Source: a virus (taxonomy: Duplodnaviria; Heunggongvirae; Uroviricota; Caudoviricetes). From it: 64,000 nucleotides of DNA. Positions 2,001 through 61,439 of the stretch are shown piece by piece. Each line of letters starts with the position of its first letter. The first letter of the stretch is position 1. Under the pieces are notes generated by a model. The model was given only the letters and a program-made list of their open reading frames with translations. It was not told the origin of the DNA and searched no databases. Both the position numbers and the translations under genes were made by a program. The stretch lies in IMG/VR virus record IMGVR_UViG_2574179769_000003, positions 13,748 to 77,747 of that record; one strand, given 5' to 3'.

Positions 2001-2153
2001 TTTCTTTCACTTCCATTTTTAACAATTCTTTTTGCTTATGCCTATAATCTATCCCTAACAATTTCTTTTTTCATATTCCTTATATAACATACTTTGCTAA
2101 GTGACATCATAAATAATTTTTTTAGGAAGAACTTAGTTTTCTTCCACGTGTAT

Positions 2154-2182
2154 ACTATACACCAAACACAAGTTGATGTCAA
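2154..2182 (-). promoter_or_regulatory. sigma-70-type promoter (TTGACA-17-TATAGT) embedded in the repeated ACTTTGCTAGTTGACATC motif
   Basis: Minus-strand reading: TTGACA (2182..2177), 17 bp spacer, TATAGT (2159..2154); drives ORF 1704..2000. Confidence 0.6.
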
Positions 2183-2198
2183 CTAGCAAAGTAAAATT

Positions 2199-4350
2199 TT
2201 ATATATTTAACCATGTATTTCTACTTAAGTTTTCTTTTTTTAGTATTGCTCTATTGACCGTATCTAAATCTCCTATATGGAAACACTTTTCTTTCATTCT
2301 TGTAAGCCCAACATAAATCAAATTGCTATTGAGCATATAAGTGTGACTTGATGGTGTAAATAAAATTACCACCTTGGCAGCGGAACCTTGAAATTTATGC
2401 AGCGTACAAGAATATGCTAATTCGACATTTTGCATATCCGTCTTTTCATATCCAACAAGCAAACCATTGAAATCTATTACAATCAAGCCTCTTTTTGTAA
2501 TATCAACTATTACCCCTGATTCACCGTTTGCAATAAACGTTTGTTCGTTGATAAAGTCATAACAATCTTCGCCCCACATTGTTCCCTTTGAAACAAGAAA
2601 AGCTTTTCGATTATTTTTTGTTTGCATTACAATATCGTTAACATAAAAATTTGTGTTATGCGCTTCGATATGAATATCTGACACCTTACGTTCTTTGTTA
2701 GCTATTGGTTGTAACAATCTGTTAATATTTATACACCCATAATCACCTTTGCGATATGATGACAATACAACCACATCTGAGGTAGAATATCTTTCCAATG
2801 TTTTCGCATAAACTTTTTTTTATACAGTCTAATCCAGCCTCCTTGTCATAGTTCATAAATAAATAATCTTTGTTTTCTCCAAATGCAGTAACTTTATTAT
2901 CATATTTTGTTAGATACAGTTTACAATTTCTTACATCAGTAGCTACTTTCATCAATCCACCCTCGCCATATCTAAATACCTTTGTCAGCATGGTTTTAGG
3001 TATTTTTTTTGATGTCAGTAAGTCATGCATTACGTTTCCACAACCTACTGATGGTAACTGGGCAGGGTCACCTATTACTAGTAGTTTGGTTATATTAAAG
3101 TCGATTGCTTCCAATACAGTTTTGAACAAGAATACATCTGCCATCGAAAACTCATCGATTATAAGCACATCGCAATTCAATTTATTAAACGAGTTATATC
3201 TCCATGTAGGCGGTTGATACCCCAATCCAGTATGAATTGTTTCGGCTTTTGATCCAGTATATTCCGATAAAACTTTGGCAGCTTTTCCAGTTGGTGCAAA
3301 CAAAGCAAACCACTTACTCTTATCTGTTAACATATTAATAATAGCTTTTGCTGAAAACGACTTTCCCGTTCCTGAATATCCGACTAAAATACTAAATTGA
3401 GATTTACATAAATTATGAATGCTAGACAACTGATCATCAGTCAATTCGTATTCATCAATAGTTCTGTAATTTTCAGGATTAACTTCGTATATATCATTGA
3501 TTTCTAACGCCTCATTTATTCTGTATTTTATATACATTTCGGCTTCGTATGTAACTTTTCTCGATACAAAAACATCATTATTTTTATCCTTATTGTAATA
3601 AATATCATCATCTTTGATTGCTTCAAAGAAATGTTGTGAACATTCAGGGGTTACACTTTTAACGATTGATAACAATTTTAGAATATTTATTCTAGTACTT
3701 CCGTTATTTTCAGTTTCGGTAAGATTATATAAAATGCACTCTCTACACCTTTGTAAAGAGGTTCTTAAATTATAACCGAACTCAACAATTCTGTTTTTTT
3801 GAAGTTTTAAAAGTAATTCATCTGCACTTTTAAAACCAATTCCACTCAAAGAACACATACATTTATATGGTTCTTGAATAATTTTTTTACGTACAATTTC
3901 GATTGAAGTATACTTGCTGTACATTTTTCTTAATACATTTAATGAAATATATCCTTTAAATTCATTAATAAGGTCAATTAACATAAAATTATCAATTATT
4001 TTATTCTTGATTTTTTCAAATGTAACATCTTTAATACCTTTAACTAATGACAAATCAACATCTTCATTATCCAGAACCATTTGGATAATATTCGGATAAT
4101 GAAGATACAATTCTGAGGCTTGCCTTTCTGTACATATAGTTCTAAGAAATTGATATGTTTCTTGCTGATTCACTGGTTTATCTCTTGATATCGAAACTAC
4201 TTTATATGTTGTTCCATATTTGTTTTTAGTTGGTATTCCAGTAATTTTATAGTCAGTATTTAAATCCAATTCAGATATTTCTCCCATAATAGACACATTT
4301 CCGTAATTATTTGCAATTACCCTAGGATTTGATTTAAAATCAACATTCAT
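2199..4350 (-). CDS. RecD/TraA-like SF1 DNA helicase (two ORFs joined across an A8 homopolymer frameshift near 2806..2813)
   Basis: Walker A LVGYSGTGKSF, Walker B VLIIDEFSM, VIGDPAQLPSV motif; the downstream fragment carries AYSCTLHKFQGS (helicase motif VI) and YVGLTR. Removing one A from the A8 run fuses the frames (DCIKKVYAKTLERYSTSD). Confidence 0.75.
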
Positions 4351-4424
4351 AGCATATATCCTAAAATTTTCTTTAGAGAAGGTACATCTATTTACTTGCC
4401 CTGTAAATACCGTTTCTTTTTCTT

Positions 4425-7400
4425 CTATAGTTTTATCACCTCATAATCATTTAATATTTCTTCTACTTCATCAGTTGCTATCCATTTCCCTTCAGCATCA
4501 GGTCGCTTTTTAAATTCTTTATCTAACTCCTTTATGCTTAAAACCGAAAACTGGTCAAATGGGTTGTCTCTGAATTTTTTTCCTCTTTTAATTCTTGTTT
4601 TTATCTCTTGTCCATTGTTTAAGTTTCTTATAATTAATCTTGGGGTTGTTGGATTATTTCCTATAACAAAATCTATAACTATATAATACATATTGTTTAT
4701 TTCAGAGTTTGAATAATCAGTATATCCTAAATTTTCAATTTCAAATTTTATCTGCTTTACTACTGGCATTGGTTTTGGGCAAACTTTCTCTAAAGTTATT
4801 GATAGTTCTTTCAAAAGGCTCAAATTATCAATATCTCTATATTGTTTTGGAGTAATTTTTTTTGAATACTTCTCTAAATAATATTCCGATATTCCTATTT
4901 TTTCTAATTTAGATTTTGAAATAATTTTAGCGTTTCTTAATTGAATGTATTTATTATAAACTTCTTCCAAATAAACGTTATTGCCAAAATCCGAAAAATA
5001 ATTAAGACCAATCAAAATCCTTGTTTGTCTTTCATCTAATGATGTTTTACTCATATCATCTAATAATTCTATAAAAGAACTATAGTTATTTTTTGCTAAT
5101 TCAAACAACTCTTCTGCGATCTGACCATTACAATATTTTATACTCTCAATGCCTTGATAGATTGAATTTGTTTTCTTATCCATATAAAATTCAGCCTTAG
5201 AATATCCAAATCTTATTCCATTAACATAACAACCTTTTTGGTTTATATAATTTTTAATATTTTTCATTTTATCAGCATCGCTTTTGTAAATATTTAGTGC
5301 AGCAGTAAACGTCTCTAATGGATAATAATGTCGCAAATATCCACAAGCAAATCCTAAGAATGAATATGGATCAGAATGATTCTTACTAAATAAATACGAA
5401 CTTGCATCTTCTATTACTTTTAAAAAATTGACAATTAATTCTTCTGATTCATTCTCTTTCACCCCATAATTTTCTTTCATAGTTTTAAAAAAGCCCTTTT
5501 TTATATCAGGAATATATTTTTCAGTACCAGTTTTTTTAGCAAAACCACGTCTTATTACATCTGCTTGACCCATCGAATATCCACAAAATATATGCAAGAA
5601 TTCTATAACTTGTTCTTGATATACGAGATACCCTAATGTTGGCGCCAGGAATTCATTTAATGCATAATGTCCATTATCTCTATATAATCCTTTAGCTAAA
5701 CTATCACGATAAGATGCGCCCGCAGGCCTTATTGCCCCATTTGCCATAGACATTAAGTCTATATATGAAAAATCTGGATTTTTTTCTCTTATTTTTTCAA
5801 TTACTTCTGGCTTTAATATATCTTTTAAATAATTACCTGCAAAATCTGATTCAAATTGAAAAATCAATGTGGTATCTTTAGCTAAATCTTCCCAAACATT
5901 CATATCAGTAAAATCCATATTTTCAGGTAATAAAAAGTCTATTTTTGCAAGCTTGCAGGTTTTATAAATTAGTCCAACACAGTCTAATCCAAGTACATCC
6001 AGTTTTACATAATTTAAAGAATCAATTTCTTTCATGTTGATTTGTGAAATTGGGTTTTTGTTTGTTTTACTTCTAAACGTTCCAAATTTTCCTTCAATCG
6101 GGTAAGGCGAAACTACTAGTCCAGCAGGATGAGAACCTACAGAAACTATAGTGCCTGATACCAAATCAACATATTTAAATAATTTTGGATATCGTTTTCG
6201 GTATAATTCATCAATTTCAAACTTTTTGTTATCATTTAAGAATACTGCATTGCTAATTTCTTGAGTTTCATTTAGCGACATTCCCAAAGCACGACCGATA
6301 TCCTTAATTGCACCTTTCATTTTGATAGTGTTAAATGTAATAATATCGCAACAATAAAGACCATCTCTTTTAAACAGATAATCTCTTACCATACCTCTGT
6401 CTTCATTAAACCAATCTGTGTCAATATCTGCTAAGGTAATTCTTTCGGTATTCATAAATCTTTCAAAATTCAAATTATATTTAATACTATCTATTTCAGT
6501 AATTCCCAACAGATATGCAATTACACTTCCAGAAACCGACCCTCGTGAGTATCCAAAATTCACTCCTTGTTTTTTTAGATATGACTTGTAATCTTCTTCA
6601 AGCAACAAAAAATCAATTGCCTCATTATGCTTATAAGTTTGCAACTCATAATTAATCCTTTGAATATAGTCTTTGTAATTTGGAAATTTGTTAATCCCCC
6701 TATTTTTTACACCTTCAACAATTTTTTTCAGTAATACACCTTCAGAATCGTCATACAATTTCGGATATTTTTTTGAATAATCTAATCTGAATTCTTCAAC
6801 CATATCACTCATTATGTTTGTATTCTCAATTGCTTGAAGATACACTTCTTCTGGTAATGCATTTTGAATTTTATATGCCTCAACTAACTCATCATATGTT
6901 TTGAAAGACATATCCCAATTATTTTCATCATTTCCAAAGTTCACCCTTTTACCAATCTGCAAAACTCTTCGCCCCTCTAAATCCTCTTTTGTTAAAGCGT
7001 GAGTGTCAGTTCCAGCGATTAACGGTATTCCAGTTGTATCACTTATATTCTTTAAATATTGATTATATTTTTTTGAAAAGCATCATTATGATGTTGCACC
7101 TCTAAAAAACATCTATGCTTGTTTTTTATTAATAAATTTAAAAATCTTTTTTGAATCGCTTTATCTCCCTTTGCAAGAATGCCACCTACGCAAGCTGTAG
7201 TAATGATAATATTGTCGCTGGTTTCTTCCAATTCTTTTAAGCTAATTCTAGGGTGATAATATTTATGATCTTCTTCAAACGCAATTGAAGATAGTTTATT
7301 TAGCTCTTCAACCCCATTGCCATTTTTTGCTATTAAAACACAATGATAATTATCTCGAATCTTCTCAGATAATTCTTCGGTAACATAAAATTCTTCAGCA

Positions 7401-13014: not shown

Positions 13015-14049
13015 TTAACTTGTTTTTATGTTTTGTGGATAAATGCAATTTTCATAATCACCATAAATTGACATAGAATATTCAATTTCATTGCTACACT
13101 TTTTTGTACTGTTCTCATCTGTATGGTTATATTCGGTAATCTTAACAATATAACCCAACGATCTTGCTAAACTAGAAATATCATTGGCAAGATGCTTAGA
13201 ATAAATACTAATGCAAATATTATTCCCTCTTGCTATATGCCCCGTATTAATGATTCCACTTAATAAAGCAAGCCTATTTTCAATAGATGAATAAATATAA
13301 ATTTCAGGAACAAACTTCTCTTTTGACCCACGATTATTTAATCCTAATTTCTTAATTACTTCTTTGAAAGTATTCGATTTATCTGTTTCACATACAATAC
13401 TTGCTTGTTTATAATTATCAAAACATCTTGTATGAAGTTTAACATTTAAGGATGAAATCTCATTAGCTAACTCTTCAAATAGCTCATTCTCTGAGTTTGT
13501 AAAAGTATATACATCACCAGTGAACCCACCATTACCCAGCATTAATCCTAGAGCATAGGGCGATAATGGTAATTTATTTTGATTATCAAATTCAATAGGT
13601 AAGTTTATAGGGACACTATATTTATAGTTAAATTTACTTTTTTTATTAATGTTGTTAACGGGAGTTTTATAATCTTTTAAAATTTCCTCCAATGTTACTA
13701 CTTTATAACGATAGTCATTATATTTTCCCATATTTGAACGTTGCTTTGCTGTTTGCACTGTCCATAAATGTTTTAGTCCACATCGTGTAGAAGTACCATC
13801 TTCAAATGTTACTTCATAAACATCTTTTACACCTTGTGGGAAAACTCCAGTTACGGGATATGTTTTACCATCTCTACCATAAACCAAGTCTCCAATTTGA
13901 ATCTCTCCCATTGGTTTCCAACCTGCGCTTGTAAGCACTGGTTCTGAGATAGGTTGTTCTTTACCAATCTTAGGTTCTCCTAATAAGATTGTATTATATG
14001 ATAAAGGATCAACTTTTACGTGATTCTTTTTACCAAATCTTCTAACCAT
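13015..14049 (-). CDS. Hint-domain LAGLIDADG homing endonuclease (free-standing)
   Basis: Hint-like N-terminus (VLTSAGWKPMGEIQIGDLVYGRDGKTYPVTGV); two LAGLIDADG-type motifs LGLMLGNGGF and LLSGIINTGH. The start overlaps the upstream stop (TAATG), so it is a separate gene rather than an in-frame intein. Confidence 0.6.
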   Translation of the reverse strand: MVRRFGKKNHVKVDPLSYNTILLGEPKIGKEQPISEPVLTSAGWKPMGEIQIGDLVYGRDGKTYPVTGVFPQGVKDVYEVTFEDGTSTRCGLKHLWTVQTAKQRSNMGKYNDYRYKVVTLEEILKDYKTPVNNINKKSKFNYKYSVPINLPIEFDNQNKLPLSPYALGLMLGNGGFTGDVYTFTNSENELFEELANEISSLNVKLHTRCFDNYKQASIVCETDKSNTFKEVIKKLGLNNRGSKEKFVPEIYIYSSIENRLALLSGIINTGHIARGNNICISIYSKHLANDISSLARSLGYIVKITEYNHTDENSTKKCSNEIEYSMSIYGDYENCIYPQNIKTS

Positions 14050-17063: not shown

Positions 17064-17600
17064 TTTTCCCATTTTTCTACCTCATTCTTTCTATTTATTT
17101 CTATTCATCAATTTTCTTTTTTTACATATTTTTCCCATTTATACAATTTACAAACTGTATATTTGTTTATTTTCCTAAACATCAAGATACAATAAAACCA
17201 TTCTGATATCTTTAACATATACCAGTACTTGCACTTATTCTTCTACGACACCAATAATTTCAACTTTCTCACATCTGATTTTACCATCTGTTTGATAAGG
17301 TACGCACACACCCATTAGCCATTCGTTTCTAATAAGAACTTTATATATTGTTCGACCTGAAGTTGTTATGTCTCCTTTAACCCAATCTAAAGTTGCTACA
17401 TTTATACCGCACCCACAGCCACTTGTTCTATTGAAATTGACATTTTCTTCTATTACTTCTCCTATTTCAATTTTCCAATTAGGATTTGGTTTATAGCATA
17501 GACCAAATGTTTTATAGGCAATATATCCCTCATCAGTTTTTTCGAAATATTTATTCATAATTTCGATTGCTGATGGTAAGCCTTTTGCATTACTTAAATT
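17064..17600. repeat. copy 1 of a ~0.53 kb direct repeat (3' end of a pentapeptide-repeat gene plus the downstream region); copy 2 at 51062..51605
   Basis: Near-identical to 51062..51605; the differences I found on a read-through comparison are single-base homopolymer length changes (T7/T8, T4/T3, A4/A5, T3/T4, T4/T5). Confidence 0.85.
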
Positions 17601-30818: not shown

Positions 30819-31397
30819 TTAATTACTAAAACCAAAGTGATTTCTTATTTTGGTTCTTATATTTTTAATGACTCTTGATACTTGAACCTGAGAAATACTA
30901 TATCTTTTTGCAATATCTACTTGATTTTCACCATTAATATATAAATTAAACATTTCTAAATCTCTTGAACTAAAATTTGACTTTAAATACGCTAATATTT
31001 CATTTAACAATACATGATTATTTTGGTTTGAAAACTTGTTAAATTTATATTGTATTAATTCTATAAATTCTGTTGGCTTACCATTTTCGTTTCTTATTTC
31101 ACTATTTAACGACATTGCCCCAATCGTTTTAAATTTACAATTTTTATTTCTATTATAATAATGGTTAATTCTATATTTTATTGGCTTTGTTAAAAAATAT
31201 GAAAACTTAACATTTTTTTCCACATCAAATTTTTGACAATAAGAAAGATAAGTTGTTAAACAATAATCAATTAAATCTTGTGGTGGTGTATGATAATTTT
31301 TCCTATTGTACTTATTTACCATCCATATAAACAAAGGATAGTTTTTTTTCAACAAATTCATCAATACACTCTCCTTTAAAGTTAAGCACAACTCCAA
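30819..31397 (-). CDS. phage-encoded sigma-70-family sigma factor
   Basis: C-terminal region-4 HTH LSSRDLEMFNLYINGENQVDIAKRYSISQVQVSRVIKNIRTKIR; region-2-like N-terminal half. Confidence 0.6.
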   Translation of the reverse strand: MELCLTLKESVLMNLLKKNYPLFIWMVNKYNRKNYHTPPQDLIDYCLTTYLSYCQKFDVEKNVKFSYFLTKPIKYRINHYYNRNKNCKFKTIGAMSLNSEIRNENGKPTEFIELIQYKFNKFSNQNNHVLLNEILAYLKSNFSSRDLEMFNLYINGENQVDIAKRYSISQVQVSRVIKNIRTKIRNHFGFSN

Positions 31398-35416: not shown

Positions 35417-36235
35417 TTAAAATTTTGAACATGTGTTCCAAATTTCTTGTTGAAGTTTAACAACATCATTTTCAAATAACTTACAAGCAATTTCATACAA
35501 CTGAGGAATTTTGTGTAACCCTCTATCCATTTTATTTTTAATTTTTGGTTTAATGTTTTTATATTTATCAGAATCCATCCTCCGATTTAAGTCCATTTTA
35601 TATTTCATTTCAAATTCATGATAAAGCAGATTGTATCTTTCGCTATACTTATCGCTACCTTGTCTAATAATTTGAGTAATTCTTCTACGCTTTTCAGCTA
35701 AGTCAATATCATCAACTAATCCGCCTATTACATCTTCTTTATACATAACTTCCTTTGTTAATTCTTTATTTTCTAACCGTAAATTTTGACGCTCAGTTTC
35801 TTCTTCAATCCATCTCTTAGCTCGTTCAATTGGATTTTCGATCATATAGCTATCTTTAACTGTTCTAATCGAATAATTTCCCGTTTTTCTAATAGTAGGC
35901 AACACATCTTTGGCTACCCAAATTTGAAACTTCTTAGCAATATTATTATTTGCTTTCATAGCTAATAAATAAAATACTGGTTCAGGGATAAAAATGTCTT
36001 CCCCCACAAGTGGGGGAACGCCGAATTCGCTTAAGAAATTTTTAATTCTTTCCCACCTGATACTTGTATATTGTTTACCTTTTTTATTTTGAGTTTGAGT
36101 AAATCCTAATCCTCTAGCAGCATCTTCTAAACTTACTGAAATACTGCCATCATCATTGTACTTTACCCCAATATCCAATCCTAATTCTTTGTTTTTAAAT
36201 ATTTGTAATTCACACAATTCCAAAATTGCCTCCAT
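35417..36235 (-). CDS. Bro-N-domain antirepressor
   Basis: ELQIFKNKELGLDIGV... and FQIWVAKDVLPTIRKTGNY (the Bro-N W...VLPxIRKTG signature). Confidence 0.6.
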   Translation of the reverse strand: MEAILELCELQIFKNKELGLDIGVKYNDDGSISVSLEDAARGLGFTQTQNKKGKQYTSIRWERIKNFLSEFGVPPLVGEDIFIPEPVFYLLAMKANNNIAKKFQIWVAKDVLPTIRKTGNYSIRTVKDSYMIENPIERAKRWIEEETERQNLRLENKELTKEVMYKEDVIGGLVDDIDLAEKRRRITQIIRQGSDKYSERYNLLYHEFEMKYKMDLNRRMDSDKYKNIKPKIKNKMDRGLHKIPQLYEIACKLFENDVVKLQQEIWNTCSKF

Positions 36236-36921: not shown

Positions 36922-36974
36922 AGTTCTCTCCTTTTTTATTTGAAGTCTTATTGGCCAAATATTTCTTCGCTGAT

Positions 36975-37030
36975 GTTCATTCGTGGAATCGAACCACCAT
37001 AGATTTAATCTACTGCACCTAACATGAACA
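36975..37030 (-). other. tRNA-like element, ~58 nt, lacking one arm (acceptor + single arm + T-arm); degenerate tRNA or att-site remnant
   Basis: Minus-strand reading: acceptor TGTTCAT/ATGAACA (7 bp) with T-arm GGTGG-TTCGATT-CCACG; only 25 nt lie between the acceptor and T stem; no CCA. Confidence 0.3.
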
Positions 37031-37486
37031 TTTTATGATGATTAATACACGTTCTGTGATTTTATGGTACTCATAGTTTTAATCATCATGATTGACAACA
37101 AATTAATAAGGGGGCTATCAATTTATTGTCAGATTTGTTAATCTCAACTACAGTGTGAGCTAACTCAATATAGCTGGTGGGGCGATTGTTCCCACATCTC
37201 ATCGGATATTACAAAATACCCTAACTTTACATATTGCTATGTGTGATAGCCATCTTTCTATCCTCAGCTACTTTGATTGATAAAACAGTCTACCCAAACA
37301 TTTACAGCATTATGTCTATAATGTTTCTTCACTTACTGTCATGTACATGGTTTAATCCATTAGCTTCCCTTGGCAAACTTGTCTAGAATTATTTACCAAG
37401 ATAGTACCCCTAATCAATTAATAGCTACCAATCAAAACTATTAGTTGATTTCAAATATTTTTTTTTGAGATGAGTTTTTGCAATTA

Positions 37487-37550
37487 CAAGGAGTTGAACC
37501 TTGTTATAGTGGAAGAACTATAGCTGCCTGCAATTGCACATTGTTAAGTA
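37487..37550 (-). other. tRNA-like element, ~60 nt, lacking one arm
   Basis: Minus-strand reading: acceptor TGCAATT/AATTGCA, T-arm CAAGG-TTCAACT-CCTTG, one internal hairpin TATAG/CTATA; too short for a canonical tRNA. Confidence 0.3.
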
Positions 37551-37617
37551 TCATTCAAGAATGGGAAGAAATTCACTGAACAATACTTAACTATCAATAA
37601 AAGAAAGGATTAATAGT

Positions 37618-37690
37618 GCCCTAGAAGAATCGAACTCCTACGAAAACCGTTGAACACATAGTCAGTCACTTTGCTAAGTGACATCTTGTA
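37618..37690 (-). other. tRNA-like fragment (T-arm AGGAG-TTCGATT-CTTCT + AGGGCAC 3' acceptor strand) with no matching 5' acceptor strand; overlaps a copy of the repeated GCTAAGTGAC motif
   Basis: T-arm consensus is present but the complementary 5' acceptor strand GTGCCCT is not found upstream. Confidence 0.25.
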
Positions 37691-37697
37691 TTAAAAA

Positions 37698-37774
37698 TAT
37701 GGTGGACGTTATCGGATTTGAACCGATCAACTGAGAATTATGAGTTCTCTGCTCTAACCTATTGAGCTAAACGT
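37698..37774 (-). tRNA. tRNA-Met (anticodon CAU; elongator or Ile2-type), CCA encoded
   Basis: Hand-folded cloverleaf: acceptor GGACGTT/AACGTCC, D-arm GCTC-AATAGGTTA-GAGC, anticodon arm GAGAA-CTCATAA-TTCTC, T-arm ATCGG-TTCAAAT-CCGAT, discriminator A, CCA. Confidence 0.8.
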
Positions 37775-37802
37775 CCAAATTGTAGAAAATAATTTCTACA
37801 AA

Positions 37803-38066
37803 CTATTTCTTTTTAAATACAACTCTATGTTCAATTAAATTGCCATTTGTTAAATCGAATATAATTTTCAATGAATTGTTACTTGATTTAACAAAAATTT
37901 CATTCAATGTATCTTTATTTACATCATGTTTATTTAACAAATCTTGTAATGAAAGAAATGTTAACTTTTGCCTAAAACTACTTGTTCCATTAGTAAATCT
38001 ATATGTATTGTCCTTAATGTTATTATTGTCAGCATATATTCTTTTTATATCTTTAAGATTGATCAA
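37803..38066 (-). CDS. hypothetical protein
   Basis: 87 aa ORF. Confidence 0.35.
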   Translation of the reverse strand: MINLKDIKRIYADNNNIKDNTYRFTNGTSSFRQKLTFLSLQDLLNKHDVNKDTLNEIFVKSSNNSLKIIFDLTNGNLIEHRVVFKKK

Positions 38067-38134
38067 AATTTTTTTCCTCCTATATCATTTTACTTTGCTA
38101 AGTGACGCTATACTTTTGAATAATAATCAAGGTT

Positions 38135-38848
38135 TTATTTGCCTTGATTATTATAATAATCTTCTATCAGGTTTCTATAAGTTATTTCCCAATAGAAACC
38201 TGAATTTTTGTACCCTTCATTTTCAAAAGGGTCTCTATCTTTTCGTTGTTTTACTTTGTTTTTCTGAAAGTTTTCTTCTTTCAAATTGGAGCAAACAAAA
38301 TTTACGATACCTGATATTCTAAGTTCATCTATTGAACACTTAAACAAATTAGCGACATCATCTCTTATAAATCTACCAATAGATTTTCTTAAATAATTCT
38401 CGTATTGAGAATCGTTTTCAAATTTTTTTGACACATTATTTATGTGTACTGTTTTAAATATATAGTCTTTATAGCACTTCAAAGGAAATGCTTTGTACCC
38501 ACTATATCTTGTATGAACAAACTCTAAAGACTTAAGAATTTCTACAAGATTTCTAGATACAGCTATTTCATTTTCGTCTATTTCTAAAGTTATATTTTTT
38601 TTAAAATATTCACCATCTCCTAGCATAACAAGCTCATTTTTTTTAATAATTGATGATTTTCTTATTTTAGAAATGGTTTTCAACTCTAAACCCTCATATA
38701 ATGCTAACAATATTGCCTTTTTCTCATTTGACAAATTGCTATTTTCTAATACCTTATAAAACCTTGAGTCTGATATAAATTTTATACCATCCTCAATTAT
38801 ATTGCCATATTCAAATCTTTTATCGTACTGTATGTAATTGAGTTCCAT
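38135..38848 (-). CDS. hypothetical protein
   Basis: 237 aa ORF. Confidence 0.45.
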   Translation of the reverse strand: MELNYIQYDKRFEYGNIIEDGIKFISDSRFYKVLENSNLSNEKKAILLALYEGLELKTISKIRKSSIIKKNELVMLGDGEYFKKNITLEIDENEIAVSRNLVEILKSLEFVHTRYSGYKAFPLKCYKDYIFKTVHINNVSKKFENDSQYENYLRKSIGRFIRDDVANLFKCSIDELRISGIVNFVCSNLKEENFQKNKVKQRKDRDPFENEGYKNSGFYWEITYRNLIEDYYNNQGK

Positions 38849-38883
38849 TTCTCCTTGAATAACTAAATAAGAGAAATATTTGT

Positions 38884-39117
38884 TTAAAAGGATCTGAAAG
38901 TTTTTTTTGTTCCCCTATTGTAGTTTTCCATACATTCTAATAACTCATCTGGAGTAAAATGACTTATTTTTTTTCCAACAAGCATTTCAAACTTGTTTAC
39001 TATTTTTGTATATATAGAAAAATACTCATTGTCTTTATTAAAATCAGGGTTATCTTCCAAAATATATTGAACATAATTATCAAAATTAGTTATATAATCT
39101 TTCTTCATTTTGTCCAT
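38884..39117 (-). CDS. hypothetical protein
   Basis: 77 aa ORF downstream of a consensus promoter. Confidence 0.4.
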   Translation of the reverse strand: MDKMKKDYITNFDNYVQYILEDNPDFNKDNEYFSIYTKIVNKFEMLVGKKISHFTPDELLECMENYNRGTKKTFRSF

Positions 39118-39131: not shown

Positions 39132-39161
39132 ATAATAGCACACAATACAACTTGATGTCAA
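39132..39161 (-). promoter_or_regulatory. sigma-70-type promoter (TTGACA-18-TATTAT) inside a copy of the GCTAGTTGACATCAA repeat
   Basis: Minus-strand reading: TTGACA 39161..39156, TATTAT 39137..39132. Confidence 0.55.
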
Positions 39162-39179
39162 CTAGCAAAGTAAAATTTT

Positions 39180-40161
39180 TTACATTTTTAACAAAACCTG
39201 TTTAGAATCGCTTGTACCATGAGTATAAACATTCATAGTTACAGTTGATCCTAAAGAATGCCCACACTGCTCTTGTACAAAAGCCAAATCCTTAGTTGTT
39301 CTATATAGTTCGCTCGTGTAAAAATGTCGCAGCATATGTGGAGTAATGGTGCCTTGAGAATATTTTTTAAAAGCCTTAATAATATTATCCTCTTTAATTC
39401 TATCACCACTTCTTGTTAGAAATAATGCATCACATTTTGGACTTAAATAACTTCTGTATTTAAGCCACTCTTGAATAGCATCAGAAGCAGATTTTGACAT
39501 ATAAACCACTTCGTATTCTTCTTTGATGTAAGAGCCTTTCCTTAACACATCAATATAAGGTAAGTCTTCATCTAAATGCACGTCGTTCAAATCTAGTCCA
39601 CACAACTCAACTTCTCTCAAACCTGTTCCTTTTAGAACTTGGTATATCGAAAAGTATTTATTTTTTGATATTAAATTAGGAATTTTTTTTCAAGTTATTT
39701 TCTAACATAATTAAATCTTCTGTTTTGGGCAACTTGTTTGAATTTTTTTTATGTTTAGTTTTACATACAACTGTAACACTCCTTTTTATTGGAGTATTCT
39801 CAATTATTCTTTCTTCAACAAGGTAATTGAAGAAAGATGCTAATTGATTTATTTTAGTGTTTACTGTAGAATGCTTATACTTCTTTACTTCTATTAAATA
39901 AATCAGATATTCTCTTACAGTTCCTGGTGTTACAATATTAATATCATCAAAACTGTCTATAACATTCTTTTCCAAACACCATTGAATAAAATTATTGATA
40001 GTGCTTAGATAATTTAACAATGCCTGATTACTTCTTACAGTACTATTGTTAAAATAATTTGCAAACTGTTTTGGAAATTTATACTGATTAAGCAATTTAT
40101 TTAATTTAGTTTTATTTTGTAGTTGCTTTTCATCTTTATACATATTTATATTCCTTTCCAC
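39180..40161 (-). CDS. tyrosine recombinase/integrase (SAM-like N-domain + catalytic domain; frames joined across an A8 run at 39683..39690)
   Basis: C-terminal ORF has ITPHMLRHFYTS (HxxR) and CGHSLGSTVTMNVYTH (catalytic Tyr); the N-terminal ORF 39676..40161 resembles the Phage_int_SAM domain. Confidence 0.7.
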
Positions 40162-40927: not shown

Positions 40928-41635
40928 TCAACGTTTAACTTTTTTTCTTAAAATTTCATGAATTATATCAATAACCTTATTCTCATATTTCTCACTGATC
41001 GGTATTTTAATATCATCATTTAGAACAAAGAAATGTTTTTGATTATTGAAATTTGTAACATGTTTGTAGTTAACTATATAAGATGTGTGACATCTTATAA
41101 AATCAAATTTCTTTAGCTCGGCTTCTATTGTTGAAAGCTTAGCTCTTCTTTTTATATGGCTTCCATCAATAAAATTGTAATAAACATAATTTGACTTCGA
41201 TTCAACATAAATAATGTCAGTTAGTTTAACTATTTTTCCTTCCAAAATAAAACGCATTTCTCTTATTCTTTTCCACTCATTAAGAACTGTGACAGCTTTT
41301 ATTAAGTCTGTTCTGTAATATTCTGAACTTTTTCTAATATATGCTCGAGGGAAAGCGATTATAGAATCATGAACATAGTTATCATGAGAAGATATAAACA
41401 CTGTATCTATATTGTCATGTCCTTCATTCCAGTATTCAATGGCTAAATCAATCCCATTTACCCCATCTCCAAGCTCAATATCCAAGAATAAGATTTCAAC
41501 ATCATTGTTTAAGATAAAATTTTTGTCATAGTAAGTCATTAATTCGATTTGCACATTAAAATTCTCATAAAATCTAAGCAAATCATTTTTAAGTTTTACT
41601 GCAAATTCAAGATCATCATCAACTATTAATATCAT
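40928..41635 (-). CDS. LytTR-family response regulator (REC + LytTR DNA-binding domain; AgrA/ComE-like)
   Basis: REC: MILIVDDD...ILFLDIELGDGVNGIDLA; LytTR: IIYVESKSNYVYYNF...FIRCHTSYIVNYKHV. Confidence 0.75.
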   Translation of the reverse strand: MILIVDDDLEFAVKLKNDLLRFYENFNVQIELMTYYDKNFILNNDVEILFLDIELGDGVNGIDLAIEYWNEGHDNIDTVFISSHDNYVHDSIIAFPRAYIRKSSEYYRTDLIKAVTVLNEWKRIREMRFILEGKIVKLTDIIYVESKSNYVYYNFIDGSHIKRRAKLSTIEAELKKFDFIRCHTSYIVNYKHVTNFNNQKHFFVLNDDIKIPISEKYENKVIDIIHEILRKKVKR

Positions 41636-50575: not shown

Positions 50576-51068
50576 TCAGTCAAATTTTTTTTCAATACCA
50601 TCAAATAACAGTTTTTTAATTTCTTCATAATTATTAATAAAACCTTTTACAAGTATTATAATTTCAATTAAAGCTTTATTATCTAACCGAGTAGAAATAT
50701 TAGGATTTTCACAAGAAATTTTATAACCTAACTTAGTGGATTCTGAATAAATCGCAAAAAGATCGCCATTCAAAAGAATTTCAAAATCGTTACAACCACG
50801 TTTTTTATATGTGAAAAAATGACTATTACTAGTTGTAAATATAGCTTTTTCTGATCTAAAACCACTACTGTAAATATCTTCAAGTTTTAATTTACTTCTA
50901 ATTTTTTAATAAAATTTTTATTTCATCTTTTAATGGAACAATTTTTGGTATTAGTTCTTTACATTCTTCTGCCAATCTAGTCCATTCAATCTGTTCTAAT
51001 TTATTTTTTGTGTTTAAAAGATTATCAATTTCGTTTAAGAAATCATTATAATTTTTAATATTTTCCAT
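50576..51068 (-). CDS. hypothetical protein, apparently one ~160 aa gene broken by a frameshift in a T/A run near 50890..50910
   Basis: A 56-aa ORF (ATG at 51068, MENIKNYNDFLNEIDNLL...) continues after a frame change into the 65-aa ORF 50576..50773 with an in-frame upstream extension. Confidence 0.35.
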
Positions 51069-51605
51069 TTTTCTACCTCATTCTTTCTATTTATTTCTAT
51101 TCATCAATTTTCTTTTTTTTACATATTTTTCCCATTTATACAATTTACAAACTGTATATTTGTTTATTTCCTAAACATCAAGATACAATAAAAACCATTC
51201 TGATATCTTTAACATATACCAGTACTTGCACTTATTCTTCTACGACACCAATAATTTCAACTTTCTCACATCTGATTTTACCATCTGTTTGATAAGGTAC
51301 GCACACACCCATTAGCCATTCGTTTTCTAATAAGAACTTTATATATTGTTCGACCTGAAGTTGTTATGTCTCCTTTAACCCAATCTAAAGTTGCTACATT
51401 TATACCGCACCCACAGCCACTTGTTCTATTGAAATTGACATTTTCTTCTATTACTTCTCCTATTTCAATTTTCCAATTAGGATTTGGTTTATAGCATAGA
51501 CCAAATGTTTTTATAGGCAATATATCCCTCATCAGTTTTTTCGAAATATTTATTCATAATTTCGATTGCTGATGGTAAGCCTTTTGCATTACTTAAATTT
51601 GCATA
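51062..51605. repeat. copy 2 of the ~0.53 kb direct repeat (see 17064..17600)
   Basis: Same sequence as copy 1 except for homopolymer length differences. Confidence 0.85.
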
Positions 51606-56321: not shown

Positions 56322-56591
56322 CTATTTAACAAAAATGCAAATTGTGTTTTTTACATCATCACAAATAGCAATTTCTACAACTTTTTTATTTAGTAAAGCT
56401 GGTTTTAAATCTTCTGCTTTACCTCTGTAAATAATTTTTAAATCTTTTTTTACAATTACATTTTCTGTTACAAGTTTAGACACATTGTCTAATGTAACAT
56501 TGTTAGTTTTATTAGAATTAATATTAAAATTACAACCTAATATAGTTATAATTATTAAAATTATTGTTATTTTTTTCATTCTTACCCTCAC
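56322..56591 (-). CDS. putative lipoprotein
   Basis: Signal peptide with lipobox MKKITIILIIITILGC. Confidence 0.45.
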   Translation of the reverse strand: MRVRMKKITIILIIITILGCNFNINSNKTNNVTLDNVSKLVTENVIVKKDLKIIYRGKAEDLKPALLNKKVVEIAICDDVKNTICIFVK

Positions 56592-56696
56592 AATTTACTT
56601 TGCTAGTTTACTCTATGTTAACATTAAACTTGAGTTGATGTCAACTAGCAAAGTAGAATTAATTATTAAAAAAGAAGTTCTACTAAAAAACTTCTT

Positions 56697-57302: not shown

Positions 57303-57318
57303 GAAAAAAAAGAACTTT

Positions 57319-57531
57319 TTAAAGTTCTTCTAATAAACTAAATGCTATATCATCTTCATTGACAAATATGTAAGCGTCTCTCATATCTGACATTTCATAA
57401 AATAAACTTCCTGGGTAATACTTTTTTATTGTATGTTCTACATTATATTCACAATCACAATTTTTAAACATGTCAATAAGTTCATCTTTTTCAAACTTAT
57501 CGACTGCTTCGTCACTTATATAAGTTTTCAT
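57319..57531 (-). CDS. hypothetical protein
   Basis: 70 aa ORF. Confidence 0.35.
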   Translation of the reverse strand: MKTYISDEAVDKFEKDELIDMFKNCDCEYNVEHTIKKYYPGSLFYEMSDMRDAYIFVNEDDIAFSLLEEL

Positions 57532-57555
57532 TGTTTTTCCTCCATTTTTAATTAT

Positions 57556-58011
57556 TTAATTTAATTCTTCAAACCAATAATGAAAGGCCAACGCCTCCCA
57601 ATGACACCCAGCCACCCCCGTGTATCCATCATAAAAACATAGATTACGCTCACCATCACAAATCTTGTACCCAAAATAATATGGGTTGTTTGGAAATTGT
57701 TTATCATATGTATCAATATTCCTAACTTCATAATATTTTGGTAATTCATTGTAAAAAGTGTTCGTGATAAATTCGTATATATCTATATAAGCACTCCATT
57801 CATCATATGACATATCTTCTTCACCAAATGCAAATGCACGAGGGCGATCTAATGTCAATACGCCTTCTATATCATTGAGATTTATAGTTTCTTTTGTTAC
57901 GATATCAAAAAACCACTTGTACCCAATATAGTTGAAGTATTTAGAAATCAAATTTATATTTTTTTGATATTCTTTTAACTCTTCTCCTTTTAATTTGAAG
58001 ATATTTTTCAT
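57556..58011 (-). CDS. hypothetical protein (first gene of the leftward operon)
   Basis: 151 aa ORF at the edge of the divergent control region. Confidence 0.45.
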   Translation of the reverse strand: MKNIFKLKGEELKEYQKNINLISKYFNYIGYKWFFDIVTKETINLNDIEGVLTLDRPRAFAFGEEDMSYDEWSAYIDIYEFITNTFYNELPKYYEVRNIDTYDKQFPNNPYYFGYKICDGERNLCFYDGYTGVAGCHWEALAFHYWFEELN

Positions 58012-58484
58012 TAATTCTTCCTCCTTAAATTAATTTTATTTTTAATTAATAACGCCAATCAGTTAGCTTTTAATGTATGAAAAATACAACTTTTTGATGT
58101 ATAGTTTAAACATTTATTGATAATTATATTGTATCTTTGTTTCTCTTAATTATCAACAAATTTTAAACATCAACCAAAGAAGAGCTTTTTTGATTGGCAT
58201 TATGGTATTAAAAATAAAATGTTTATTTTTAATTTTTATGTTAAAAACCAAGATTGAATTAACCTTGGTTGCAATGATTTAAATTTGATTAGTTAAGTAG
58301 GTACTTGTAAATAATAAATACAAGCGTATCTAATCACCCGATACTATCAAGGATTTTCACCATCTCAAGCCAATCATTATTGCTATGTTATCACAACATT
58401 GCAACTACTGTTTAGGGTATTAGGAATCTAACGACTTTCTAACTCTCTAAATATATTGGTAGAGATTTGATATCAAGTATCTAA

Positions 58485-58538
58485 TTGTCAATGAACTAAT
58501 AAGAAATAATTACCCAATCTCCCAAAGTTCATTGACAA
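58485..58538. promoter_or_regulatory. 13-bp perfect inverted repeat (TTGTCAATGAACT ... AGTTCATTGACAA) overlapping the -35 of the plus-strand promoter; operator-like
   Basis: Arms at 58485..58497 and 58526..58538. Confidence 0.55.
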
Positions 58539-58560
58539 TTATTGATTAATAATATATAAT
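58532..58560 (+). promoter_or_regulatory. consensus sigma-70 promoter TTGACA-17-TATAAT (plus strand)
   Basis: TTGACA 58532..58537, TATAAT 58555..58560. Confidence 0.65.
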
Positions 58561-58586
58561 CGTAATTGACCTTTAGGGGTCTGGTT

Positions 58587-58637
58587 GGTTAATCGTTTCA
58601 GTTTTTGCGGACTTTCAACGATTAACCCTTTTTTTTT
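58587..58637 (+). terminator. promoter-proximal hairpin + T9 (GGTTAATCGTT ... AACGATTAACC); intrinsic terminator or end of a ~70-nt small RNA
   Basis: 11-bp perfect stem, 19-nt loop, followed by CTTTTTTTTT; begins ~25 nt after the predicted TSS of the 58532..58560 promoter. Confidence 0.5.
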
Positions 58638-58704
58638 ATTTCTTGTGATATTTGTAAGTTTAGGATTGATTCGATCAATCTTATCTCTCCTACCTTACAA
58701 CTTA

Positions 58705-58733
58705 ATTATACACGAATTACTTGTATTTGTCAA
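58705..58733 (-). promoter_or_regulatory. consensus sigma-70 promoter TTGACA-17-TATAAT (minus strand) with conserved downstream leader AAGTTGTAAGGTAGGAG
   Basis: Minus-strand reading: TTGACA 58733..58728, TATAAT 58710..58705; points into the leftward gene block. Confidence 0.6.
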
Positions 58734-58951
58734 GTATTCCTTGTATTTTTTTGAGGATTTCTTTTTTTTATAACTTCCTTAGATTTCAAATCATCCTCAA
58801 TCAATTTTTTAATATAGCCTGCTTTATTGTCTAAATTATCAAGATAATCAAGTATTTCTTTATCTTTATTTTTAGAAAATTTGATAGTGATAACTTTAGA
58901 ATTTTTTTTATCACTTTTAGCATTGGCTTTTCTTTTAGCTTCACTCACCAT
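58730..58951 (-). CDS. small basic protein, possibly ribbon-helix-helix DNA-binding
   Basis: 73 aa; KVITIKFSKNKDKEILDYLDNL...AGYIKKLIEDDL resembles a CopG/RHH fold; flanked by the two duplicated minus-strand promoters. Confidence 0.4.
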   Translation of the reverse strand: MVSEAKRKANAKSDKKNSKVITIKFSKNKDKEILDYLDNLDNKAGYIKKLIEDDLKSKEVIKKRNPQKNTRNT

Positions 58952-59086
58952 AATATCACCTCGCTATATTTATTATAGCACAATTCAACGCTATGGTTCA
59001 TAAGGCTTTTATTTGTAAGATATTGACATTTAGCTAAGTCAAGTTTTTGATCTTTTGACTTAACCTTTCCTTTACCTTACAACTAT

Positions 59087-59115
59087 ATTATACATGACAA
59101 ACGCTAAAAAGTCAA
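59087..59115 (-). promoter_or_regulatory. sigma-70 promoter TTGACT-17-TATAAT (minus strand), paralogous to 58705..58733 including the leader ATAGTTGTAAGGTAAAGG
   Basis: Minus-strand reading: TTGACT 59115..59110, TATAAT 59092..59087; drives ORF 58730..58951. Confidence 0.6.
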
Positions 59116-59198
59116 TACTTTTTTATAAATTATTTAATTATTTTAATGAATTATTATATATTAAATTAAATCAATTTATTAAAACGATCAAATATGGT

Positions 59199-59227
59199 TT
59201 GACAATTAAATAATACAAGTATATTAT
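59199..59227 (+). promoter_or_regulatory. sigma-70 promoter TTGACA-17-TATTAT for the rightward HTH gene
   Basis: TTGACA 59199..59204, TATTAT 59222..59227, RBS TAGGAGG, ATG at 59250. Confidence 0.6.
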
Positions 59228-59249
59228 TAATTATAGGAGGTATTATATT

Positions 59250-59792
59250 ATGTCTAAAGAAATTATTTTTAAATATAACAACAATAACCAATTAAAAAAA
59301 ACTATTAAAGAAATAGCTTTGTATAATGATATTAAAATGTCTAGTATAGCTAACAACCTAAACATTAGCAATAGTCAATTAACAAATACTTTAAATAAAA
59401 AAAATATTAACTTTAATGATATTAAAAAGATATTAGACGTAGTTGGATATGATTTAGTGTTAGAATTTAGACCTAAAGACAACTTTAGTATCAAAAATAA
59501 ATTACCTGATACAATTAGTATAAATACGAATAACAATATGGAAATCAACACAGATATTGTTGACGATGATATATTGGCATTGCTAAATGATACAATCAAA
59601 TATGGCTACAGTGGTATAAACGTTGTAGATAATTGGTTGGAAAATAACGGTTACATTATAAATAGCAAGTTGTTTGATAGTGATGGTAAGATATTAGATA
59701 ATGCTAGAGCGCTATTGGTTAAAGGTGTATCGTTTGGAAAAACCAACGAACTAATTAAGAAGAAAGTCTTTATTAAAGATAAGAAGTTGTAG
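59250..59792 (+). CDS. XRE-family helix-turn-helix transcriptional regulator (CI/Cro-like position)
   Basis: HTH segment IKEIALYNDIKMSSIANNLNISNSQLTNTLNKKN...DIKKILDVVGYDLVLEF; first gene of the rightward transcription unit. Confidence 0.55.
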   Translation: MSKEIIFKYNNNNQLKKTIKEIALYNDIKMSSIANNLNISNSQLTNTLNKKNINFNDIKKILDVVGYDLVLEFRPKDNFSIKNKLPDTISINTNNNMEINTDIVDDDILALLNDTIKYGYSGINVVDNWLENNGYIINSKLFDSDGKILDNARALLVKGVSFGKTNELIKKKVFIKDKKL

Positions 59793-59799
59793 CCTATGC

Positions 59800-61000
59800 T
59801 AGTATAGTCCTTTTACATGCTATAAGCTATTTATTTAACGTATAAAGGCTAAAATGATATTATAGTAGGTAAGCTAAGGTATATAGGTAATGTGGCTTAG
59901 AATGGAAATATTTGATTTATAGAGTATGTGAGTAGAGATATGATAATTGTAATAGTAGATATGCTAATGTAGTAATGTGGATATAGGATACACATAAAAA
60001 CATAGAGTGATGTAAGCTACATATACAGAAAATATTATAGCAATGTACCAATATAACATATTAATGTAATATATTAATGTAGTGCTCCAATATAGTATAT
60101 TAGTACTATGCTATAGTAATATTACAGTTATAGTAGATAGAGTTAGTGGGTTAGTTAGATGAATCTGGTTAATTGACTTGATATGGTTGATTGATATGGT
60201 TGGTTGGATTGGATATGTAGTGTAATTGACATAACTGTATTAATGTAATAGTACAGTAGTACAGTTGATAGTGTCAACTAATATAGTCGGTATATAGATA
60301 TAATTACTACTAAAAGTAGTTTTCGATACCGTTTCTAAGCTGATACCAATTAACAACCCTATCATCAACCAGACCAACTCACCAACTCAATAAATTGTAT
60401 TAAAATCAGTACAATACAATAAATAATACTGTACTACTATAAGTAGTATGGTATTTTATTTTAGATAACCCGGGGTATATCGAACTTTTCAAGCTATTTA
60501 AAACTGCTTAAAATCGCCTATCTACCCCATTTTTCTACCACACGATCACCCCAAATTTCACCGACCGATTAAAATTTACTATCCAACAACCATAAAAATC
60601 ACCCTATTTTAACTTTTTCAAAAAAATACAATTTTGCATCATATTTGTCCACAAACCTATCGGTAACTTATCGGTATAACTACCTTAAATACCCCTACTT
60701 TATTACCATAATCTTCGTATATTCTAACCATAACTATCCAACCATCTAATTAGCAATTTATTGTATTTTACAATTAATCATTAAATCACCTTTTCACTTT
60801 ATCCCTAAACATCCGTATTATCTCCGAAGAACAAAAAGTTGTATATTTTGATTTAAAACCGACCTTTAAAATACCTATTTCTATCCTTATTAATATATTG
60901 ACTTATTTGCGAAATTTTTCAGCATTATTAACAACATTAAAACCTAATTTACCGAATCGGTATATCCGAACCTGAAATAGTCAAATTTTAAATCCCAAAA
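59800..61000. other. 1.2 kb ORF-free region with extreme strand asymmetry (C-poor until ~60300, then G-poor), internal inverted and direct repeats and TATCGGTA/TACCGATA iteron-like motifs; candidate origin of replication or long non-coding locus
   Basis: No ORF >60 aa in any frame; left half is almost only A/G/T (TAG/GTA-rich), right half A/C/T; repeated words (GATATGGTTG x2, AGTACAGT x2 with inverted partner TACTGTACTACT at 60430, TATCGGTA x2-3, GATACCG x2). Confidence 0.4.
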
Positions 61001-61042
61001 AATCAAACTTGCAATTTTGATATATTTTTTTACTTTGCTAGT

Positions 61043-61071
61043 TGACATCAACTTATATTTAGTGTATAGTG
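61043..61071 (+). promoter_or_regulatory. sigma-70 promoter TTGACA-17-TATAGT inside a copy of the ACTTTGCTAGTTGACATCAACTT repeat (plus strand)
   Basis: TTGACA 61043..61048, TATAGT 61066..61071; an inverted partner of the repeat lies at 61131..61146. Confidence 0.6.
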
Positions 61072-61439
61072 ATTGTAGTAACGATAGCTGGATTGTTTTT
61101 CAGTCCAGTTTAAATTCAAATATATAATGTTACTTAGCAAAGTAGATATTAGCTTATTAAATCAATTTTAAGAAACGTTTTATTGATTTGTGACTATTTA
61201 TACCTATTCAATTAAATGTTTCTTAGAATTAAAATATAAGCCATATTTAGATATATGACTATTTTGGTGATGACATATATATTTGATATGAATAATTACT
61301 AAATCTAATCGAAAGGAGAAATATTATGAATACAGGTTAATCTATTACAATAATTCAATCTATCTTAATTTATGATATGGTTATCTACTGTCATCCTACT
61401 CAGTAATTAACAAGATAGCAGAAAATATAATACGTCCAA

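Follow-up and report, generated by a model that had tools for sequence, protein, structure and literature searches.

Dispersed Asymmetric Repeats as Probable Operators of an Integrase-Fold Repressor in an SPbeta-Like Prophage of Thomasclavelia cocleata

Introduction

When one short, asymmetric sequence recurs in the intergenic regions of a large prophage, the question arises which protein, if any, reads it. We address this question for a 64-kb stretch of the IMG/VR virus record IMGVR_UViG_2574179769_000003 (positions 13,748 to 77,747; hereafter the window), which belongs to an SPbeta-like prophage of the gut bacterium Thomasclavelia cocleata and contains exactly nine copies of an asymmetric motif of ~18 bp spread over 59 kb. 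A sequence-only reading of the window had taken these repeats for either a phage-specific promoter or regulator-binding module or a set of boundary elements for modular recombination. Our analyses suggest that the nine repeats are probably the cognate operators of an SroF/MrpR-like repressor encoded at 38135–39117; we infer binding by analogy with known repressors and because each of six variants of this protein comes with its own version of the motif, at shared syntenic positions.

The relevant precedent comes from SPbeta, where about ten promoter regions, among them that of the repressor operon itself, carry the SPBRE ("SPbeta repeated element"), to which the master repressor MrpR (YopR, SroF) binds; MrpR has a tyrosine-recombinase fold (PMC10516654). 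MrpR/SroF proteins act as integrase-fold monomers on asymmetric boxes of 15–26 bp (PMC10516654; bioRxiv 10.1101/2025.11.27.690993). In Phi3T, the SroF monomer encircles DNA at a 26-bp asymmetric box, its sites lie far apart in the genome, and each phage has its own version of the repressor, the operator, and the small antirepressor Sar, which co-evolve (bioRxiv 10.1101/2025.11.27.690993). We recover ACAAATACAAAAAATATGTATA at seven reported promoters in the SPbeta genome, either just upstream of the -35 (aimR and yonX) or between the -10 and the ribosome-binding site (yonT, yopV, yopM, yorE, and yonP). Our literature search found no publication on the repeat/repressor system of the window.

The Repeat Family and Its Promoters

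A weight matrix built from the nine copies and run over both strands of the window (128 kb) returns the same nine sites only, with scores of 24.5–33.3 bits, whereas the runner-up scores 10.6 bits. The 9-mer ACTTTGCTA occurs nine times against an expectation of 0.83, a count reached by none of 100 shuffles, and the two 18-mers, allowing up to 3 mismatches, have 6 and 8 matches compared with 0.04 and 0.06 expected. All nine copies lie in DNA without open reading frames (ORFs; at least 50 amino acids [aa] counted), which makes up 14.9% of the window (P about 4e-8), and all nine are intergenic in the gene calls of independent contigs as well. The sequence-only reading had reported at least nine copies, and each lies within 5 nt of the position it gave. 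No motif copy has a match in Rfam.

The copies fall into two classes. The four A copies, which carry a -35 hexamer, are identical 18-mers (ACTTTGCTAGTTGACATC) at 2192(-), 39171(-), 56654(-), and 61032(+), and the similarity around them extends over about 50 nt. Each (GTTGACATC) supplies a TTGACA followed at 17–18 bp by a -10 hexamer (TATAGT, TATTAT, TAACAT, and TATAGT), such that by consensus match the A copies are predicted to be near-consensus, strong sigma-70-type promoters, all co-oriented with their downstream genes. The sequence-only reading had recognized this arrangement at three sites and missed the fourth, at 56654. The five B copies (ACTTTGCTAAGTGAC followed by variable positions) comprise ACTTTGCTAAGTGACATC twice and variants ending in AAGTGACGCT, AAGTAACATT, and AGTTTACTCT; in every one of them the 9-mer ACTTTGCTA is perfect and the -35 is spoiled (GTGACA, GTAACA, or TTTACT). 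B copies are without exception oriented opposite to local transcription and downstream of an A promoter.

Three of the A copies are closely paired with a B copy, with the B copy 40, 84, or 94 bp downstream (centre-to-centre) and placed over the predicted transcription start or at about +40 to +67. The first A site (2175–2192, minus strand; -35 at 2177–2182, -10 TATAGT at 2154–2159) would direct transcription leftward into the ORF at 1704–2000 and the genes downstream of it, and its inverted partner ACTTTGCTAAGTGACATC (2091–2108, plus strand) lies 84 bp away at about +40 to +57 of the predicted transcript. The third A site (56637–56654, minus strand; -35 at 56639–56644), also leftward, precedes the ORF at 56322–56591 and further downstream genes and has a weaker -10, TAACAT (56615–56620); its partner ACTTTGCTAGTTTACTCT (56597–56614, plus strand), 40 bp away, overlaps the predicted start about 10 nt before the ribosome-binding site. 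The fourth A site (61032–61049, plus strand; -35 at 61042–61047, -10 TATAGT at 61065–61070) is a predicted rightward promoter whose partner ACTTTGCTAAGTAACATT (61126–61143, minus strand) is found at about +50 to +67, 94 bp away. The 31–76 bp between the arms of these three pairs enclose only the -10 and leader region.

The second A site (39154–39171, minus strand; -35 at 39156–39161, -10 TATTAT at 39132–39137) is the predicted promoter of the sroF-like gene, and the two remaining B copies, neither of which has a local partner, lie downstream of it. One, ACTTTGCTAAGTGACGCT (38092–38109, plus strand), is inverted, 1.06 kb from its A copy, and situated between the terminator of the sroF-like gene (ORF 38135–38848) and the ribosome-binding site of an 87-aa ORF; the other, ACTTTGCTAAGTGACATC (37668–37685, plus strand), is inverted and unpaired and lies 15 nt downstream of a tRNA-Met gene (37700–37776, minus strand). 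The earlier description of the repeats as usually inverted pairs holds for the three close pairs and for 39171/38092 and fails for the copy at 37668, and its proposal that the partners bracket short gene cassettes applies to the 39171/38092 pair only.

The B site at 37668 lies inside a cluster of RNA genes (36950–37780, minus strand) that includes, in addition to the tRNA-Met gene, a skipping-rope RNA (37169–37272; 48.9 bits) and several T-arm-like remnants; a B site is found within this cluster in relatives as well.

We considered whether the B copies could be divergent promoters and rejected this idea, given that sequence inspection reveals no acceptable -10 at 16–18 bp. Promoters for a phage sigma factor were also ruled out: the A promoters match the host consensus, so no phage sigma factor is needed. 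Consensus sigma-70 promoters without the motif are present in the window at 58532, 58733, 59115, and 59199. Two near-consensus sigma-70 promoters on the minus strand (58693–58738 and 59069–59120), in a divergent control region beside genes for ribbon–helix–helix-like (RHH-like) and helix–turn–helix (HTH) proteins, are each followed by (T/A)AGTTGTAAGG, which looks like a second, separate repeat family.

Covariation of the Repeat with the Immunity Cassette

Metagenomic relatives of the prophage encode a cassette in the order about 105-aa ORF, tyrosine integrase with intact catalytic boxes, sroF-like gene, and 82–87-aa ORF, although the short contigs L116 and L120 show it only in part. Across these contigs and the window we find six divergent sroF-like variants (P0121, P0122/3, P0125, P0127, P0126, and P0128) in six motif types. 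In each type, the sroF-like gene has a promoter whose -35 is joined to a motif specific to that type, an inverted copy is found between the end of that gene and the next ribosome-binding site, and, on contigs that reach that far, another inverted copy lies beyond the small ORF or tRNA. The position of the B site at 38092 is shared by L109, L111, L114, L116, L119, and L120, and sites orthologous to that at 37668 are present in L109, L111, L116, and L119.

The window represents type 1, with ACTTTGCTAG-TTGACA as the -35-linked form and ACTTTGCTAA-GTGACA as the inverted form. The corresponding forms are ACTGTACTAG-TTGACA and ACTGTACTAT-GTGACA in type 2 (L109, L111, and L104); ACTGTACAC-TTGACA and ACTGTACAC-TTGACA or -TTGCCA in type 3 (L114 and L105); ACTGTTGCAC-TTGACA and ACTGTTGCAC-ATAATA in type 4 (L116); CATATTATTA-TTGACT-AGTGAACG and CATATTATTA-GATACT-AGTGAACG in type 5 (L119); and AACTATTACCG-TTGACT and AACTATTACAC-TTAACC in type 6 (L120). 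The sroF-like protein is the most diverged product of the cassette, with 30–55% identity between types compared with 78–89% for the flanking genes.

In L104, DnaE is 98% identical to that of the window and the intergenic region downstream of the helicase gene is homologous, internal hairpin included, yet the substitutions T4G and G6A are present in both arms of the homologous pair. The motif thus tracks the immunity cassette and not the replication module, and because the two DnaE proteins are 98% identical, it probably does not track the host either. A more distant relative (L106; DnaE 61% identical) has a different promoter palindrome and is uninformative.

The type-2 specificity half, ACTGTACTA, is found in the window as three exact copies within 190 bp (60249–60265, minus strand, and 60428–60436, plus strand), one of them inside a promoter-like site, TTGACA-18-TACTAT, at 60277(-). 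This cluster lies in a gene-free region (59793–61399), 1.6 kb without ORFs and full of short tandem repeats.

The Candidate Repressor and Its Neighbors

The candidate cognate repressor, an SroF/MrpR-like integrase-fold protein of ~314 aa, is encoded on the minus strand at 38135–39117 and would be driven by the A promoter at 39171. In the window the gene reads as ORFs of 77 aa and 237 aa, the break between them being a T-run near 38886 that differs by 1 nt, whereas in six relatives it is a single ORF of 296–317 aa. Over 11 kb the window differs from the independent metagenome contig L117 by three homopolymer-length indels and nothing else, and with two of these the DnaE and helicase genes become intact. 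This comparison points to assembly errors rather than a decayed prophage as the source of split genes in the window, and because all three differences are of homopolymer length, the split of the sroF-like gene is probably an error of the same kind. The split genes observed in the window are those for DnaE, a RecD-like helicase, a small ORF, the sroF-like protein, and the integrase (at 7067, 2814, 1714, about 38886, and 39620–39676, respectively).

Pfam MrpR_N_CB is the top match, below threshold, of the 77-aa ORF and of four distant homologues. Structure prediction from a 5-row alignment was mediocre (pLDDT 66) and improved once distant homologues were included; the resulting AlphaFold model (8-row alignment), of the homologue P0122, with which the window ORFs align over their full length, has a pLDDT of 82.7 and a pTM of 0.69. 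The top four PDB matches to this model in Foldseek are SroF–Sar, YopR (two chains), and MrpR (E 2e-8 to 2e-6), followed by lambda Int, Cre, and Xer at 8e-5 or worse, such that the candidate repressor is predicted to have a tyrosine-integrase fold with CB and CAT domains. The only invariant residues in the family alignment are N88, I129, G136, R197, K210, D211, and Y212; judged by eye, the sroF-like family as a whole seems to preserve neither the usual GLRxxE arginine nor the HxxR box.

The repressor gene is preceded by an integrase-like gene, an order also seen in SPbeta for yopP and yopR; no YopQ-sized gene is present. This neighbor, immediately upstream of the second A site in the variable cassette, encodes a tyrosine recombinase that retains its catalytic boxes (39180–40161, minus strand; split here and 320 aa long in relatives). 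The 87-aa ORF (37803–38066, minus strand), with a B site in front of it, comes directly after the repressor gene; it co-varies with the repressor (28–66% identity) and, we speculate by analogy with Phi3T, could be a Sar-like antirepressor. A response regulator with REC and LytTR domains (40928–41635, minus strand) is encoded two genes upstream of the integrase/sroF-like cassette; a protein with 76% identity is present in L109, and none is found in the 16 kb fetched around the L114 cassette.

Genomic Context of the Window

The assignment of the window (GC content 27.7%) is supported by the 237-aa ORF, which is 100% identical to a T. cocleata protein, and by a match of the locus to contig PHNQ01000039.1 of assembly GCA_002803405.1. 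The SPbeta-like character is evident from a DnaE-type polymerase (DnaE/YorL-type) whose homologues reside on contigs of 100–160 kb and from YorH, YonJ, and YonG domains; many Bro/Ant proteins, a sigma/Mor-like protein, and the REC–LytTR regulator are also encoded. The phage is absent from the representative genome, and searches with the whole window and with the promoter module reveal no close DNA relative among deposited phages and plasmids, with matches limited to pentapeptide repeats or noise. The exact 18-mer has no match in IMG/VR, where a degenerate pattern finds only single-copy loci that we judge to be chance; in GTDB genomes and JGI metagenomes it is found only at a host toxin–antitoxin-like locus and in apparently unrelated sequences.

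This host locus contains an identical 22-nt A module (ttACTTTGCTAGTTGACATCaa) on the chromosome of T. cocleata DSM 1551 (L089, 2378–2395 and 2932–2949) and is also found in the metagenomic sequences L096 and L102. The module is the predicted promoter of a terminator-ended RNA of roughly 90 nt that converges on a 40-aa hydrophobic ORF (MTTYETVMVMLTCLAFVMTVVGIIVKLLLIIIKKEFEAKK), and the two modules are in tandem, resembling type I toxin–antitoxin systems. Homology between the chromosomal locus and the phage is limited to the promoter module. We think it improbable that the phage operator also acts on the host chromosome. If it does and the small RNA is an antitoxin, an incoming type-1 phage repressor would silence the small RNA, in which case the locus would either sense the phage repressor, as a defence by abortive infection or against lysogeny, or give the prophage a hold on its host through addiction.

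Further features of the window include a GC-rich island at 61400–61640, 370–600 nt downstream of the 61032 A promoter in a genome of 28% GC, which has no Rfam match even at E ≤ 1 and a fold z-score of only -2.5. At 61717–61799, a 34-bp unit repeated 2.5 times (ATAAAAAATATTAACTTTTTGTC...) lies directly upstream of the ORF at 61801–62601 and may represent iterons or a second operator set. A duplication of ~450 bp (17065–17513 and 51061–51511, 34 kb apart, with blocks 97–100% identical) leads into two pentapeptide-repeat genes with 15-nt periodic repeats. In the replication module, the ORF at 13015–14049 (minus strand) matches intein Hint and homing-endonuclease domains, and its counterpart in L104 is a single 731-aa product with AAA_24 and homing-endonuclease domains.

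Discussion

We propose that the nine repeats are docking sites of the prophage's own non-HTH master repressor, a counterpart of the SroF/MrpR (YopR) proteins of Phi3T and SPbeta. The sequence-only reading chose the right class when it suggested a phage-specific promoter or regulator-binding module, given the strong sigma-70-type promoters predicted at the A copies and a motif specificity that differs between related phages. The binders it proposed (the HTH protein at 59250, the RHH protein at 58730, and the sigma protein at 30819) are disfavoured by the host-type promoters, by the length and asymmetry of the motif, and by the identity of the co-varying gene, which encodes the integrase-fold protein at 38135–39117.

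It is unlikely, in our judgment, that another phage protein binds the operators, whether the adjacent tyrosine recombinase, the 105-aa or 87-aa cassette protein, the Cro/CI-type HTH protein (59250), the RHH-like protein (58730), or the REC–LytTR regulator (40928–41635). HTH and LytTR proteins are encoded in the window; however, an asymmetric site of 18–24 bp suits a monomeric clamp and not an HTH or RHH dimer. LytTR proteins bind two direct repeats of about 9 bp that are about 12–13 bp apart and upstream of a weak -35, whereas the motif here has no direct-repeat partner 21–22 bp away, the -35 of the promoters is perfect, and the 16 kb around the L114 cassette keep the architecture without a LytTR gene. 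The integrase and the 105-aa and 87-aa ORFs do diverge between motif types, and integrases can act as repressors (discussed in PMC10516654), but the integrase is less diverged than the sroF-like protein, whose closest structural relatives are proven repressors of exactly the expected type. Very improbable is an explanation at the RNA level, in which an A copy and its inverted B copy would form a stem of ~20 bp in read-through transcripts and serve as an RNase III processing or stability element as in the early genes of T7 or SP82. The predicted stems of the three pairs are strong (-35.5, -17.6, and -35.3 kcal/mol; z = -5.4, -3.2, and -5.5) and their arms change together between phages. Even so, the 37668 copy is unpaired, the 38092 copy is 1.06 kb from its A copy, and each A copy is upstream of its own transcription start; moreover, dispersed copies within a phage share one sequence, which hairpins do not require, and B departs from A systematically at the -35 positions instead of keeping the pairing.

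To recombination sites, serving inversion or excision by the adjacent tyrosine recombinase or acting as hot spots for modular exchange, we give a slightly smaller probability still. Inverted repeats flank the sroF-like gene beside a recombinase gene in all six cassette types, and the genes downstream of the 2091–2192 pair differ between the window and L104. The arms of three pairs are, however, only 31–76 bp apart, which is very short for inversion by a tyrosine recombinase; recombination among sites distributed over 59 kb would scramble the genome, the dyad-plus-spacer core typical of recombinase sites is missing from the 18-mer, and both the cassette order and the orientation of the 1.06-kb pair are constant in every fetched contig with readable gene order. 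The break in homology is not at the motif, given that the intergenic region is homologous across motif types, and the related suggestion in the sequence-only reading of boundary elements for modular recombination likewise finds no direct support, as the 2091–2192 region is conserved in a relative with a different motif type. Least probable of all, we believe, is that the motif is a promoter feature only, an extended upstream element for host RNA polymerase or a phage sigma factor, with the B copies as decayed promoter duplicates. Four copies are by consensus bona fide promoters and the same 22 nt form a predicted promoter in the host chromosome; yet the B copies keep the 9-mer perfectly (9/9 copies of the family are exact) in the absence of a -10 box and occupy conserved, orthologous positions in six phage types, the motif is missing from other consensus promoters of the window, and the 9-mer differs between phages with 98%-identical DnaE that presumably share a host. 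A ParB-type centromere was also dropped, as no ParB is seen among the 25 listed Pfam families of window proteins (43 matched) and the sites are non-palindromic.

Several observations weigh against operators of an SroF/MrpR-like repressor. Sequence searches yield no significant link for the candidate, to MrpR/SroF or otherwise (hhalign probability for MrpR 1.9%, with noise only in a PDB sequence search), and its connection to these repressors is by predicted fold and synteny, the structure model being that of P0122, which is 50% identical to the protein of the window. The repressor gene of the window reads as two ORFs, for which an assembly error is the probable explanation by extension from other genes. 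Given that the integrase, 105-aa, and 87-aa ORFs also vary between types, co-variation alone does not single out the sroF-like protein. All seven SPBRE copies recovered are sense-oriented, whereas the B sites are always inverted relative to the A sites, an inversion that the repressor model leaves unexplained. No LexA box is found near the cassette (the single GAAC-N4-GTTC of the window is at 35427), and Pfam scans identify no AimR/arbitrium genes in the window or near the cassette, with 64 kb plus about 19 kb of prophage seen.

If the nine repeats are nevertheless operators of the SroF/MrpR-like protein, we envisage by analogy that one repressor monomer clamps each asymmetric site of ~18–24 bp. 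At A sites, the operator includes the -35 hexamer and binding would exclude RNA polymerase; B sites, with the same recognition sequence and a spoiled -35, would be second locks or roadblocks, positioned over the start or ahead of the next gene. The repressor gene would be autoregulated from its own A promoter, and its terminator and the B site would close it off and insulate the downstream genes. The 5′ half of the motif (ACTTTGCTA) would set immunity specificity, the TGAC-like half being common to types. The promoters at 56654(-) and 61032(+) flank the divergent control region at 58–61 kb, and early transcription to the left and to the right may start mainly from these two. The integrase-fold repressor may still pair its sites in the manner of a recombinase, as the conserved inverted A/B geometry could indicate.

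Integrase-fold master repressors with dispersed asymmetric operators have been described in 2023–2025 only and in Bacillus arbitrium phages only. If our proposal is true, the same repression logic extends to large SPbeta-like prophages of gut Erysipelotrichales, with a conserved inverted two-site architecture that has not been reported for SPBRE. It would also provide at least six natural repressor–operator specificity pairs for studying how the integrase fold reads DNA and allow immunity groups of uncultured gut phages to be assigned from their operators.

Among known systems, the closest is SPBRE/MrpR of SPbeta. On our proposal, both have an SPbeta-like background, a repressor with the integrase fold (CB and CAT domains, predicted here), and a long asymmetric repeat at many dispersed promoter regions, beside the -35 or in the leader before the ribosome-binding site, with one copy controlling the transcription unit of the repressor itself. 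In contrast to SPBRE, the operator sequence is unrelated (ACTTTGCTAGTTGACATC compared with ACAAATACAAAAAATATGTATA), the -35 hexamer is inside the operator, and copies on the downstream side are inverted and often form a pair with an upstream one 40–94 bp away; similarity to MrpR is detectable by fold only, the host is an Erysipelotrichales gut anaerobe, and no arbitrium genes are seen in the window. The monomer-on-asymmetric-box logic of Phi3T SroF/Sar (PDB 9rd5 and 9rgl) suits motifs of 18–24 bp, and as in Phi3T the repressor and operator are phage-specific and co-vary, together with a small ORF near the repressor gene. Unlike the Sar system, no LexA box is found near the small ORF, which directly adjoins the repressor gene instead of lying one ORF away, and the box is GC-richer and not an A-tract.

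A primary operator that overlaps the promoter and an auxiliary operator tens of base pairs downstream are also reminiscent of OR/OL looping in lambda and of OR/OL/OD in TP901-1, although those operators are palindromes bound by HTH dimers and the sites described here are asymmetric and inverted. The spacings of 84, 94, and 40 bp come near to integral numbers of helical turns, which is suggestive of phasing, although three distances are too few to prove it. Short sequences repeated at several promoters of a large replicon are likewise known from the KorB OB sites of RK2 and the centromere repeats of N15 SopB. Those sites are palindromic and belong to ParB-family proteins; the present sites share their arrangement around a large replicon and differ in being non-palindromic and in the lack of ParB noted above. 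If the repeats are operators as we propose, the system is of the SPBRE–MrpR/SroF kind in a new and distant lineage outside Bacillus, with a new operator and a conserved inverted two-site layout, and does not represent a new principle.

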